From Coleofasciculus sp. B1-GNL1-01 (lineage in GTDB: Bacteria; Cyanobacteriota; Cyanobacteriia; Cyanobacteriales; Coleofasciculaceae), in assembly GCA_040220235.1 (NCBI GenBank), contig JAVJTO010000132.1: 64,000 bases of DNA; one strand, given 5' to 3'. Of the stretch, positions 15,647-23,939 are shown piece after piece (positions within the stretch are counted from its first letter, which is position 1; the number at the start of each line of letters is the position of its first letter). The notes beneath the pieces are model-generated. The model saw only the letters and a list, made by a program, of their open reading frames with translations. It was not told the DNA's origin and searched no databases. Both the position numbers and the translations under genes were made by a program.

Positions 15647-16810
15647 ATGCTAAAAATTGTCATTGATGCCACTCCTGTTCAACCCAATCCTAGTGGAGTT
15701 GGTCTTTACGTCTTAAATTTAATTGAATCCCTACTCAAGCTACAAGTCCAGGAAAATTTTCAACTGGGCATTGCTTACCAACCAGGCTTCAAAAATTGGC
15801 TGCGTGGCTGTTTCTCCCTTCCCGACTCTCTACAACAAGTTTCTCCTATTTACTTAGTTCCTATACCCGTTCGAGTCTCAAACCTTATCTTATCTCTTCC
15901 AGCTAACATTGTTTCCCAGTATTTTGAGAATTGCCTGGGTTCACCCGATATTGTTCAGGGAACCAATTATTCCGTGTATCCCTGTAAAAATAGCCAAAGA
16001 ATTATTAATATTTATGATTTAAGCTTTATCAAATATCCTGACTATATTGATTCTACAGTTGCCACCTATAAAAAACGAATTAAGAGATACTTACAGTGGA
16101 CTGACTTAATTCTCACGATTTCCGAAAGCTCTAAACGCGATATTGTGAACTATTTAGGAGTCAATCATCAACAGATTTATGTCACCCCCCTAGCTAGCCG
16201 CTATTCATCAGGTTACTTGAAAAACTATCTTAGAAATCAGGTCATGGAATCCATTGACTATGACTTTTCACAACCTTACCTTCTGTTTGTGAGTACCATA
16301 GAACCCCGAAAGAATATTCAAACCTTAATTAATGCCTTTAACTTACTAAAACAAACCGTTAAGCTAGAGCATCACTTAGTCTTAATTGGTAGAAAAGGGT
16401 GGCATTATCAACCGATATTTTACGCTATTGAAAACTCTCCCTGGAGTCACCATATTCATCATTTGAACTACCTATCAGATGAACAGGTTGCCTTTTTCTA
16501 CTCTAAAGCCGATGTCTTTGTTTATCCCTCCCACTACGAAGGGTTTGGTCTTCCGGTTCTCGAAGCCATGACCCTTGGTGCTCCTGTGGTTACTTCCAAT
16601 ACCTCCTCTTTACCTGAAGTCGCTGGTGATGCAGCCCTTCTCATTGATCCGAACGACTCCATACAGTTAGCTGAGGCTATTTTAAAAATCATCAGTGACA
16701 CTCAATTCCGCCAAGAATTAATTCACAAAGGCAAAGCAAGAGCTAAACTATTCTCTTGGGAAAGAACGGCACAAGAAACCCTAAACGCCTATAAATCTAT
16801 ACTCAGTTAA
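15647..16810 (+). CDS. GT4 glycosyltransferase (mannosyl/rhamnosyltransferase-like)
   Basis: [25 protein letters not shown]. Confidence 0.92.
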   Translation: MLKIVIDATPVQPNPSGVGLYVLNLIESLLKLQVQENFQLGIAYQPGFKNWLRGCFSLPDSLQQVSPIYLVPIPVRVSNLILSLPANIVSQYFENCLGSPDIVQGTNYSVYPCKNSQRIINIYDLSFIKYPDYIDSTVATYKKRIKRYLQWTDLILTISESSKRDIVNYLGVNHQQIYVTPLASRYSSGYLKNYLRNQVMESIDYDFSQPYLLFVSTIEPRKNIQTLINAFNLLKQTVKLEHHLVLIGRKGWHYQPIFYAIENSPWSHHIHHLNYLSDEQVAFFYSKADVFVYPSHYEGFGLPVLEAMTLGAPVVTSNTSSLPEVAGDAALLIDPNDSIQLAEAILKIISDTQFRQELIHKGKARAKLFSWERTAQETLNAYKSILS

Positions 16811-17078
16811 TAAATTCTTTAATCCATCATTTAACCTTGTCTTCCCCCCTATTAGTCAACCTTTCCATCCTCTTTGCTCAACCCACTGGCATCGCCACCT
16901 ATGCTGCCAACCTATTCTCCTACTTAAAACCCCTAGATCCCACCCTACTCATTTCACCTCTCACGTCAAACCACTTCCCCCTCGCCTCTGACTTTCACAG
17001 CTACCCTGTTCCCGCCAACCTCAGCCCTGCCCATGGAACAAAAGGACACTTCCGTCGCCTGTTATGGACTCAATTCAA
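16803..17078 (+). repeat. Direct repeat copy 1 (partner 23664-23939)
   Basis: Near-identical colinear sequence at offset 6861, includes the upstream stop codon and first ~80 codons of a GT4. Confidence 0.95.
16837..17078 (+). pseudogene. 5' fragment of the GT4 at 23698
   Basis: [18 protein letters not shown]...LLWTQF matches 23698 protein then diverges abruptly. Confidence 0.9.
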
Positions 17079-17173
17079 ACACCCATTCCCCAGCATCCCG
17101 ATATCCTCGCGTTGGGGTTCACTAACAGTCCGTAAATATCTAGACAATTAGTGACATAACTGGACATTTTCTA

Positions 17174-17182
17174 TGATATAAT
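17174..17182 (+). promoter_or_regulatory. Extended -10 promoter for a likely leaderless tnpA-tnpB transcript
   Basis: TGaTATAAT ending 6 nt before ATG 17189. Confidence 0.6.
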
Positions 17183-17188
17183 CAGGAA

Positions 17189-17383
17189 ATGTCTAGTTTA
17201 ACTGCCCAAGAAGCGGCTACTCGACTAGGTGTGACGGTCTTGCACGTTGCACCGATGGCAACTCAACGGCTCTCATTCGATCTTCTCGGACGGCTGGCGG
17301 TCCGGAGTCGATATGATATTGTTGACTTAATTGGCAATAAATCGGGTAACGAATTAACCGTTGGCGTAGCCGCGAGTATCTAG
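17189..17383 (+). pseudogene. tnpA: Degenerate IS607 serine-recombinase TnpA (MerR-like HTH remnant)
   Basis: LTAQEAATRLGVT...RYDIVDLIG...LTVGVAASI resembles HTH and decayed YARVSS; catalytic domain missing. Confidence 0.8.
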
Positions 17384-17412
17384 TCAGAACTGAGGGAGGT
17401 AGCCAAAAAGCT

Positions 17413-18903
17413 ATGACGACGATAACTTATTGCAAAGGCTTGCCAACTCCCGCCGATGAACTTAACCCCATCGGTTTCACCGAATTGGAAATGTTTTTAA
17501 CGTCATTGTCCGATATATTTTATCAAGCAACAGTTGAAACAGTTAACCAGTTATTAAATCAAGAAATCAAGTTTAATCAATCCAGTTGGAATAGTCATAT
17601 TCAAGAGAAATACGGACTCAGTAAGCGTTATGCTAACGGAGTAATTGCATTAGCTAGAGGAAAAACTTCCTCAGCCAAAGAATGTAGAAAGCGCCAGATA
17701 AAGCAATTAGAATCACGAGTTCAGTCAGCGGAATCTTGGGTAGCCAAAGCCACAAAGAAAATTAAGTTGGCTCGGAAGTTCTATGGAAAAAAGAACTGGC
17801 AAGCCTCCCAAAAAGGTTGTAATTTCCCCTTGTCGTCAAACCTCAAGACAAGAAAAACTAACTGGCATCATCTGCGTCAAGGTCGGCATCATAAAAAGCG
17901 ATATATCCACCGACTTCAAAATCAAATTAAACATCTGAAATCGGCGACAATTAGAGTGAAGGTATCCAGAGGGTCAGTATTTATTGTTGGTTCCAAGGAT
18001 GAAAGTTATGGGAATCAAACTTGTCAATGGTCTGGGGATACGCTCAAATTGAGAGTTCCCGATTGTCTTTTAGCCAAATTTGGGAAATATGTCACATCAA
18101 AAATTGGCAGCTTCTCCAGAAAGATTAATAGATTACCCAATAGTGGTGCGAAAACATGGCACTTCTATAGAAAGGATAATCGCTGGGTTATTGCTGTTCA
18201 ATTCACGCCCGCAGCGGTGGAGAAAGTTAGTCGAGAAATTAAGTATGGTGCCTTGGGTATCGATTTAAATCCTAGTTCTATCGGTTGGGCTTATGTTGAT
18301 GGTCAAGGAAATTTAAAAGCGCAGGGAACTCTTCCTTTTCAGACGGGTTTACCTAAAGGTAAACAAGATGCTCAACTTGTCGATGTTTGTTTGAAATTGG
18401 CAGCTTTAGCCAGGGATTTTAAGATCCCTGTTCTGTGCGAAAACTTAGATTTTTCGAGAAAAAAAGCTCAACTTAGAGAGCGAACGAAAAAATATGCTCG
18501 AATGCTTTCTGCCTGGGCATACAGTCGTTTTTATCAGATTTTGTCATCGATTTTATCCAACCGAGGAATAACTCTTGTGTTTGTCAATCCAGCTTACACG
18601 AGTTTGATCGGCTGTGTTAAATATAGTCGGATGTATGGACTATCATCTGATGTGGCAGCGGCCCTAGCAATTGCCAGAAGAGGCATGAACTTAAGAGAGA
18701 GATTGCCGCGCTCTTTGTCCGCCTATCTCGGAGTGAATCCGAGAAAGCACGTATGGAGCGCTCTATATCAACTTAATAATTTTATTGGTCGATGCCCTGT
18801 AGTCAATCGTAGACACGATTACTACGGCGTCTCTAACTGGGAACCGTTGGTTAAGGCTGATATCGAGCAACAATGCCGGGTATCAGCCAAGCGCAAGCGT
18901 TAA
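17413..18903 (+). CDS. tnpB: TnpB-family RNA-guided nuclease (IS607-associated, Cas12n/V-U4-like clade)
   Basis: RuvC-I GIDLNP, RuvC-II CENLDF, VNPAYTS, RuvC-III SDVAAALAIARRG; no Zn finger; 496 aa. Confidence 0.88.
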   Translation: MTTITYCKGLPTPADELNPIGFTELEMFLTSLSDIFYQATVETVNQLLNQEIKFNQSSWNSHIQEKYGLSKRYANGVIALARGKTSSAKECRKRQIKQLESRVQSAESWVAKATKKIKLARKFYGKKNWQASQKGCNFPLSSNLKTRKTNWHHLRQGRHHKKRYIHRLQNQIKHLKSATIRVKVSRGSVFIVGSKDESYGNQTCQWSGDTLKLRVPDCLLAKFGKYVTSKIGSFSRKINRLPNSGAKTWHFYRKDNRWVIAVQFTPAAVEKVSREIKYGALGIDLNPSSIGWAYVDGQGNLKAQGTLPFQTGLPKGKQDAQLVDVCLKLAALARDFKIPVLCENLDFSRKKAQLRERTKKYARMLSAWAYSRFYQILSSILSNRGITLVFVNPAYTSLIGCVKYSRMYGLSSDVAAALAIARRGMNLRERLPRSLSAYLGVNPRKHVWSALYQLNNFIGRCPVVNRRHDYYGVSNWEPLVKADIEQQCRVSAKRKR

Positions 18904-19005
18904 CGGTTATCGACCAAAAGTTACACCGTGGACTTATACCAAGGCAGAATTACTGATGGGTAGGTTTGTCTAGGTTTTTAGAAGCGGTTTGTGGATGAGC
19001 CAACC
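18720..19005 (+). ncRNA. Putative omegaRNA scaffold plus flank-derived guide
   Basis: Nested stems 18785-93/18909-17, 18799-810/18815-25, 18842-48/18902-08, 18855-62/18881-88 overlapping the tnpB 3' end; 5' and 3' limits uncertain. Confidence 0.65.
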
Positions 19006-19327
19006 AAGTGGAATGTGATCGCGGCGTGTGATATTTTAGTTATGCCATCGCCTTATGAAAGTCTTTCTATGGTATTGTTAGAAGCCTGGGCAGTCGGTAA
19101 GCCAGTTCTCGTTAATGGGGGATGCGATGTTTTAGTGGGACAGTGTAGGAGGCCGCAAGGAGGATTTTGGTATAAGAATAAGGATGAATTTATTGTGGCT
19201 GTAGACATGATCCAAAATTCCGTCAGCTCTCAGTTGGGATGACAAGGGCAACGGTTTGTTAAAATGCATTATGTTATGTCAAAGATCGAGCTTGATTATT
19301 TAATCATATTTCCCCAAAAGTATCCCT

Positions 19328-20311
19328 ATGTCAGAAATCACGGATAACTCTAGAAATAGTAATTTTTTTGTGATTCTAATTCCGGTGTTTAATGACTGGA
19401 ATTCTTTAGAGGTATTGCTTATCCATTTAGAGAAAGTTTTTGAAAATGAAACTATTAAAGCTGAAATAATAGCTGTAGATGATGCGTCTAATATAGCTAT
19501 TCATGAAAATTTTATCAGTTTTAAATTGACAGCAATAAAAAAAATTAGTATTTTAGAGTTAAGGAGAAATGTGGGACATCAGCGAGCAATTGCTATAGGA
19601 CTAGCATACATAGAAGAGAATATAGCCTGTAAAGCGATTATAATTATGGATGGGGATGGAGAAGATTCCCCACTAGATGTCATTCGGTTAATTAAAAAAT
19701 GTGAAACAGAACAATATAGAAAAGTAGTTTTTGCTAGACGAAGTAAACGTTCTGAGGGTTTTATATTTAAGTTGTTTTATGTGATTTATAAAAACTTGTA
19801 TAAATTTTTAACAGGTCAAGAAATTAGGGTAGGAAACTTTAGTATTATACCTCGCAAAATCTTGTGTAGACTTGTCGCTGTATCAGAGATATGGAATCAC
19901 TACGCTGCAGGCGTTTTAAAAGCAAAAGTTCCTTGCACAGATATTTATAGCCAACGAGGGAAGCGTCTTTCTGGAAAGTCTCAAATGAATTTTGTACAAC
20001 TTGTAATTCATGGACTCAGTGCTATTTCTGTGTACGCGGATATTGTAGGAATAAGATTATTGTTTATCTCTTGTTTGCTTATAGTCATGAGTTTAATTTT
20101 TATTTTGGTAGTTGTGGGCATTAAGTTGCTCACTGAGTTGGCAATTCCGGGTTGGACTTCTTATATTGTAGCCTTGTTGTTTATAGTATTCATGCAAGGG
20201 TTTATGCTATCTATGATTTTTGTTTTTGTCGTTTTAACAGGAAGGAATAATCTGGGTTGTATACCAAAAAGAGATTACCGATATTTTGTTTTGGAAGCTA
20301 AAGAATTATGA
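19328..20311 (+). CDS. GT2 polyprenol-phosphate glycosyltransferase (GtrB-like)
   Basis: IPVFND, VDD, NVGHQRAI, MDGDGED, C-terminal TMs. Confidence 0.88.
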   Translation: MSEITDNSRNSNFFVILIPVFNDWNSLEVLLIHLEKVFENETIKAEIIAVDDASNIAIHENFISFKLTAIKKISILELRRNVGHQRAIAIGLAYIEENIACKAIIIMDGDGEDSPLDVIRLIKKCETEQYRKVVFARRSKRSEGFIFKLFYVIYKNLYKFLTGQEIRVGNFSIIPRKILCRLVAVSEIWNHYAAGVLKAKVPCTDIYSQRGKRLSGKSQMNFVQLVIHGLSAISVYADIVGIRLLFISCLLIVMSLIFILVVVGIKLLTELAIPGWTSYIVALLFIVFMQGFMLSMIFVFVVLTGRNNLGCIPKRDYRYFVLEAKEL

Positions 20312-23663: not shown

Positions 23664-23939
23664 TCAGTTAATAAATTCTTCAATCCGTCATTTAACCTTG
23701 TCTTCCCTCCTATTAGTCAACCTTTCCATCCTCTTTGCTCAACCCACTGGTATCGCGACTTATGCTGCCAATTTATTCCCCTACTTAAAACCCCTAAATC
23801 CCACCCTACTCATTTCCCCTCTCACGTCAAACCACTTTCCCCTCGCCTCTGACTTTTACAGCTACCCTGTTCCCGCCAACCTCAGCCCCGCCCACGGAAC
23901 AAAAGGACATTTCCGTCGCCTTTTATGGACTCAATTTCA
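23664..23939 (+). repeat. Direct repeat copy 2 (partner 16803-17078)
   Basis: Colinear near-identity with copy 1. Confidence 0.95.

Follow-up and report, generated by a model that had tools for sequence, protein, structure and literature searches.

The locus lies in a window of 64,000 nt that forms part of contig C132 in a 172-contig cyanobacterial assembly (G000); all features given below are on the + strand. Positions 17118-18987 are a non-autonomous IS607 derivative inserted in a glycosyltransferase gene, and they comprise a left end (17118..17188), a relic of tnpA (17189..17412), an intact tnpB (17413..18903), and a predicted omegaRNA scaffold with the right end (18832..18987), which overlaps the last ~24 codons of tnpB and ends in GCGG. 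IS607 elements carry short repeats at both ends in place of terminal inverted repeats, and their TnpA combines an HTH with a serine recombinase and catalyzes excision to a dsDNA circle. Conservation among copies begins sharply at 17118, and the left end holds imperfect CTAGACA-type repeats at 17140-17146 and 17160-17166. CTAGACA-like units, few in number, occur at both ends of the element, and we infer a putative TnpA-binding role for those of the left end.

Joining 17117 to 18988 in silico gave the frame ...PIPQHPDILALG|FVDEPTKW..., and GG is present at each junction. Because the two junctions share GGTT, this site alone leaves the cut point ambiguous by 4 nt. A search with the right flank across nine genomes of the genus found the exact empty site in four of the eight others; in each of them, the 37 nt on the left meet the right flank at the same joint, which sits within an intact GT4 gene of 386-392 aa. 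A GG core, a scarless empty site, and the lack of target duplication beyond the core are as in IS607 elements, and together with ends shared across copies they uphold the assignment of an earlier note, which had proposed an IS607 derivative with both ends present.

Left of the insertion, 12 codons of the host gene remain (17081..17117), matching three of the four relatives at 89-100% over 38 nt (blastn) and the intact allele of the fourth by eye. The 3' part (18988..19330; PF00534) shares 76% identity with residues 278-384 of an intact relative and carries a premature TGA at 19240-19242. Only about residues 264-386 are left, and the N-terminal part (~260 codons) was not found in the assembly. 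Immediately upstream, 16803..17078 is a 5' fragment of a different GT4 gene, a 94% copy of 23664-23936 (blastn); this piece of the GT4 gene at 23698 joins the host gene at ~17080, 37 bp left of the element. The host glycosyltransferase here is a truncated pseudogene, so no gene would be regained by excision. The earlier claim that deletion restores the reading frame thus holds for the GG junctions and for the intact gene in four relatives, but in this genome it recovers only the last ~120 host codons, interrupted by the TGA at 19240.

We defined the target motif from 36 distinct left flanks, namely those matching the left-end pattern among the fetched homologous loci. Positions -1, -2, and -3 were G in 36/36 and position -4 was A or G at 18:18, giving a consensus of RGGG (GGGG here, 17114..17117), the predicted TAM; as background, RG precedes GG at 13.4% of genome sites. 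On the other side, GCGG ended 29 of 30 distinct right junctions, with T as the next base in 29/30. A wider set of 57 distinct junctions (80 wider loci), collected with a pattern that itself required CGG at the right end, had T 34, C 12, and A 11 at +1. From the left-flank and right-junction counts, the target is RG-GG-(T) and not TTGGGG, the TAM offered at first: its G-rich part stands, whereas T was found at -5 in 13/36 and at -6 in 17/36, and we rejected TTGGGG since only RGGG is conserved over the 36 flanks. The search for other copies that the earlier note proposed found the same ends in sister copies. The TnpB protein was matched in 21 of 61 genomes, including all eight of the genus; among its named homologs, those of Coleofasciculus and Microcoleus come closest.

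The tnpA relic retains the first ~60 codons, with frameshifts, and the last ~9 codons, and ~380 nt are deleted. The distance from the left end to the tnpB start is 295 nt here. In three of 26 measured copies it is 670-675 nt, and these code for a TnpA of 200 aa (NF033518, IS607 transposase; 211 bits vs a cut-off of 110); metatranscriptome contigs carry 381 extra letters at 17386. The serine recombinase of the IS607 family is thus present in the sister TnpA and survives as a relic in this copy, as had been proposed. Among 68 wider loci with enough upstream DNA, tnpA-like sequence was present in 24, and in 18 it was near-full and upstream of tnpB. For the autonomous tnpA that the earlier note had suggested searching for, the three sister copies provide full-length candidates; in this genome, the one IS607 TnpA above cut-off is on contig C55 and is 33% identical to the cognate TnpA. 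This tnpA (G000:C55:532-1059) is apparently intact and of another subfamily; downstream of it lies a different tnpB, truncated at the edge of the contig, and both the end and the TnpB of that element look different from those studied here. Neither a cognate TnpA nor a second full element was found in the 172 contigs, whose fragmentation means that absence is not shown, and so this copy is probably stranded and immobile.

Copies elsewhere vary in state. One relative (G003; loci L002, L022, and L031-L043) carries at least 15 copies, with an uninterrupted tnpB in 10/15. One of them, L040, has a full tnpA yet a frameshifted tnpB, which suggests complementation in trans. At L092:2725-4720 there is an apparent second left end inside tnpB, and the start of the scaffold seems to recur beyond the right end, which may reflect a tandem or nested insertion.

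The tnpB ORF is open and encodes a 496-aa, RIIIr-4-like protein with RuvC residues D284, E343, and D413 and no C4 zinc finger, in agreement with the earlier description. It scored at the cut-off of TIGR01766 and below the cut-offs of NF040570 and PF07282. In 64 close proteins (the query and 63 of the 120 matches listed; 57-89% identity), site I is D in 64, site II is E in 64, and site III is D in 63 and E in 1. The AlphaFold model (pLDDT 80.5, falling to ~60 just before D413) matched Cas12f, Cas12k, TnpB, and RuvC with no single best family: the top Foldseek matches were Cas12f (E 8e-9), and alignment gave Z 14.3 with RuvC (rmsd 2.6, 133 aligned) and Z 12.8 with ISDra2 TnpB (rmsd 6.1, 287 aligned). 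PDB sequence searches with the protein and its close profile gave nothing significant, a weak Cas-phi3 match (E 0.06-0.67) being a single motif; a deep-profile PDB search gave, among the matches listed, only short ones to Cas12f, and the ESM Atlas only unnamed transposase/TnpB-related clusters. Over the first 460 codons, dN/dS was 0.26-0.39 vs 12 close copies and 0.14-0.18 vs four distant ones (16 of 17 comparisons tried gave values, and the pairs are not independent), indicating that tnpB is under purifying selection. A TnpB/Cas12 fold with the RuvC triad is that of an RNA-guided TnpB nuclease, and from these features we infer that the protein is probably an RNA-guided DNA cutter.

The protein had also been called Cas12n-like. 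A Cas12u4 HMM did not match the query or seven family members at E up to 1, but matched 51 other places in the same genome, down to E 2e-77, and a C4 finger was present in each of the six of these that were examined. According to the accessible part of its report (PMC12216341), RdCas12n carries a CCCC zinc finger in its TNB, recognizes an A-rich PAM, and uses a crRNA/tracrRNA. Because RdCas12n has this finger, the lack of one here points away from Cas12n and towards RIIIr-4. No Cas12n was among the best 60 of 67 PDB profile matches; RdCas12n (9J09/9UDI) was absent from the listed fold-search rows, a weak comparison because these entries lack the nuclease lobe. In a crude scan, the window held no array-like repeat, and one of 80 related loci did: at L105:225-682, seven repeat copies lie ~1.8 kb upstream of a tnpB of this family.

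RIIIr-4 is defined by His at RuvC-III together with loss of the C4 finger (Altae-Tran et al., PMC10691335, accessible text). With a profile of the TnpB family, a search at E up to 0.001 returned 2,602 clusters. We aligned 98 proteins, made up of the query, 91 long matches of 150 listed, and six close homologs; site III was His in 64, Asp in 17, Gly in 11, Ala in 5, and Glu in 1. A zinc finger was found in 0/98; the stretch between positions 389 and 413 comprises 23-24 residues with at most one Cys. The query thus shares the finger loss of RIIIr-4 and departs from it at D413. Against the family profile, an IS607 TnpB from Streptomyces that carries the His motif scored E 6e-58, vs 3e-5 or worse for six zinc-finger TnpBs of G000. 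By eye, this Streptomyces protein closely resembles ortholog 39 of Nety et al., which carries the RIIIr-4 label, is of His type, and is the only RIIIr-4 row found in their Supp. File S2 (PMC10278001); there, the protein did process RNA but showed no activity in the TAM screen. On a Streptomyces plasmid, the IS607 element with the His-type TnpB (L181:429-2650) has, by eye, AGGG-G before its left end and ACGG at its right end, and so follows the same logic as the element studied here.

The query belongs to a 32-row non-His branch (support 1.0) nested among His lineages, in trees rooted either on the Streptomyces His-type protein or on zinc-finger TnpBs (FastTree, SH-like support only); the midpoint-drawn FastTree alone gives no direction for the D/H change. 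Since the non-His branch is nested inside His lineages, its Asp is most simply explained as a secondary return, and it appears to be one in the query's branch. The protein would fit the zinc-finger-less RIIIr-4 clade as a derived branch and not as a typical member, with the link to ortholog 39 made by eye. Site III is G or A in 16/32 members of the same branch. These 16 relatives, including rows P0127, P0131, P0137, P0138, P0146, and P0154, retain site II, with site I lost in only one of them, and they are candidate non-cutting or rearranged enzymes.

For the right end, we aligned 36 copies, the window and 35 of 40 non-redundant loci, leaving out L101, L109, L113, L133, and L146 as mis-bounded or irregular. 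Invariant blocks run from 18832 to the terminal CGG. Helix 1 (seven pairs) shows changes on both sides in 6/7 pairs, and 97.5% of cells pair vs at most 47% in slid controls, a score favoured by the derivation of the structure from the same alignment. Being invariant, the CCG that pairs with the terminal CGG contributes no covariation. The MFE z of the fold is -3.97 for this copy; the family median is -0.72, and values fall below -2 in 8/36. The alignment thus predicts a conserved, structured RNA of ~155 nt with one covarying helix that ends at the right boundary, as a TnpB scaffold does. It matched no Rfam family, and a promoter scan found nothing on the + strand. Metatranscriptome data from 4 of 20 listed runs, all of them contigs, contain element-like sequence, and two show the empty-site joint. 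These are variants from other strains, and contigs cannot show RNA ends, strand, or level, so they are not evidence of expression or excision. An orphan 168-bp copy of the scaffold and right end (94.6%), also ending in GCGG, lies at G000:C24:48579-48746, and upstream of it there is neither a left end nor a tnpB. Acting in trans, it could provide this TnpB with a second guide; the assembly holds no perfect GGG + 12-nt target for that guide.

Conservation drops after GCGG(T) in both the 30 and the 57 distinct junctions, and by analogy with ISXfa1 and CboTnpB the right flank (predicted guide, 18988..19007) would be used as the guide, as the earlier note had read it. The 20 nt that follow the empty-site joint match this guide at 20/20 in two relatives and at 19/20 in two, with GGG before each. 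The predicted target, an empty or intact allele, therefore agrees with what the four relatives carry, and an incoming intact glycosyltransferase allele would bring both TAM and target. No perfect match to GGG and 12 nt of the guide was found in this genome assembly.

The published systems that these features recall are described in preprints, here as far as their text was accessible. ISXfa1 TnpB accepts GGG as TAM and not CGG, its scaffold measuring 144 nt and its guide 17 nt (bioRxiv 2023.08.09.552727), and CboTnpB cuts the empty donor joint with TAM TGGG and has a scaffold ending in UCGG (bioRxiv 2023.11.20.567912). By analogy with them, we favour, at a probability of roughly 0.7, a non-autonomous IS607 element whose TnpB would cut guide matches that abut RGGG and would thereby retain the element. 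A serine TnpA, as in characterized IS607 systems, would have recombined at the GG core to place it at RG-GG-T. A transcript reading through the right end would supply the ~155-nt scaffold ending in GCGG followed by ~17-20 nt of flank; RNA-bound TnpB would cut where RGGG abuts a guide match, either in the excised chromosome copy or in an incoming empty allele; and repair from a filled copy would keep the element. The filled site would be spared because its right end offers CGG and not GGG, a pattern that we take as fitting the logic demonstrated by experiment for ISXfa1 and CboTnpB. The element appears to fit that model in every testable feature, with cleavage, RNA ends, and TnpA activity read across from it. 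Counting for this retention mechanism are the empty sites, the RGGG and GCGG flanks, the TnpA of sister copies and the near-full tnpA of wider loci, the triad, the dN/dS values, the uninterrupted tnpB of G003 copies, and the covarying helix; counting against it are the TAM-negative ortholog 39, G or A at site III in half of the branch, the weak median fold z, the scoring of the helix on the alignment that yielded it, and the chance that RGGG is a mere preference of TnpA.

The same observations against cutting bear on an alternative that keeps the element and its RNA and has TnpB bind without efficient double-strand cutting, as an RNA-guided binder, nickase, or transposition regulator. RGGG would then be TnpA's target choice, and it could indeed reflect TnpA preference alone. 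The frequency of G, A, and His at site III across the family and the low model confidence just before D413 add to the inactivity of the sole tested RIIIr-4 ortholog found. Yet close homologs keep Asp at this site in all but the one with Glu, sites I and II are invariant among them, the strict GGG/CGG asymmetry suits self-avoidance, and the TAM screen scored only 27 of 59 orthologs as active (PMC10278001, accessible tables). We consider this alternative unlikely. Less probable still is that TnpB cuts with a differently placed TAM/guide boundary, for example with the first flank T taking part in scaffold pairing or in the TAM. The T at +1 of nearly all close junctions can extend the ACCG/CGG stem, and GGT(T) is common to both junctions, but C and A together make up 23 of the 57 wider +1 bases, and the CboTnpB and ISXfa1 scaffolds end in CGG with a TAM that includes GG (bioRxiv 2023.11.20.567912, 2023.08.09.552727, as accessible). 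That the protein is a relative or precursor of Cas12n (V-U4) is very improbable and already largely refuted: the two share a TnpB-type bilobed RuvC architecture, a similar size, and a C-terminal tail whose coding end would overlap the RNA, an arrangement general to TnpBs, but here there is no profile match, no zinc finger, no array-like repeat in the window, and a predicted motif that is G-rich and not A-rich, in a gene inside a transposon, and we rejected the kinship.

Retention of IS607 elements by a GGG-TAM TnpB is already published and its design is well known, so under the retention mechanism the locus is unsurprising. The mild novelty lies in a zinc-finger-less RIIIr-4-type branch that bears Asp, and in its uncatalogued scaffold. 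Literature searches, with subscription journals mostly outside their reach, found no study of this TnpB subfamily, and the accessible text of bioRxiv 2026.03.27.714800 does not mention IS607. We hold it tentatively, at somewhat short of even odds, that this cyanobacterial branch combines a RuvC-III Asp regained inside RIIIr-4 with an active RGGG-TAM nuclease and an undescribed omegaRNA. If so, a major TnpB clade on which we found no report of activity would gain an active member, and the naturally occurring D, H, G, and A variants of a single site could be used to test directly which arrangements of RuvC-III support cutting. The locus is a well-defined test case, its ends, predicted TAM, and predicted scaffold being fixed by dozens of natural insertions, and it represents a little-tested clade in which the single tested member that we found showed no activity in a TAM screen. 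Should the protein prove active, it would contribute a zinc-free nuclease of 496 aa whose TAM is short and rich in purines; its usefulness as a tool would be modest, because smaller IS607 TnpBs (~390 aa) have already been put to use in human cells.

Compared with the RIIIr-4 clade, the protein shares the missing C4 finger, a family in which His prevails at RuvC-III, and homology to the IS607-linked Streptomyces His-type TnpB; it differs in the Asp that it and its close homologs bear at site III and in the absence of a ~30-residue segment before GSKDE. The TAMs of 23 other IS607 TnpBs are AGGAG or GAGGG (PMC11061315, accessible part). Like ISXfa1, the CboIStron TnpB, and ISFba1 and its relatives, the system described here belongs with a serine TnpA, has a GG core and a scarless empty site, and combines a predicted G-rich TAM (theirs being GGG, TGGG, and GAGGG/AGGAG) with a right end in CGG, a predicted right-flank guide, and a scaffold of ~150 nt. 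In contrast to these known IS607 systems, its TnpB is longer than that of ISFba1 (496 vs ~390 aa), lacks the zinc finger, and has no sequence match to solved TnpBs, its target is RGGG, its scaffold has no Rfam match, and no group I intron was seen.
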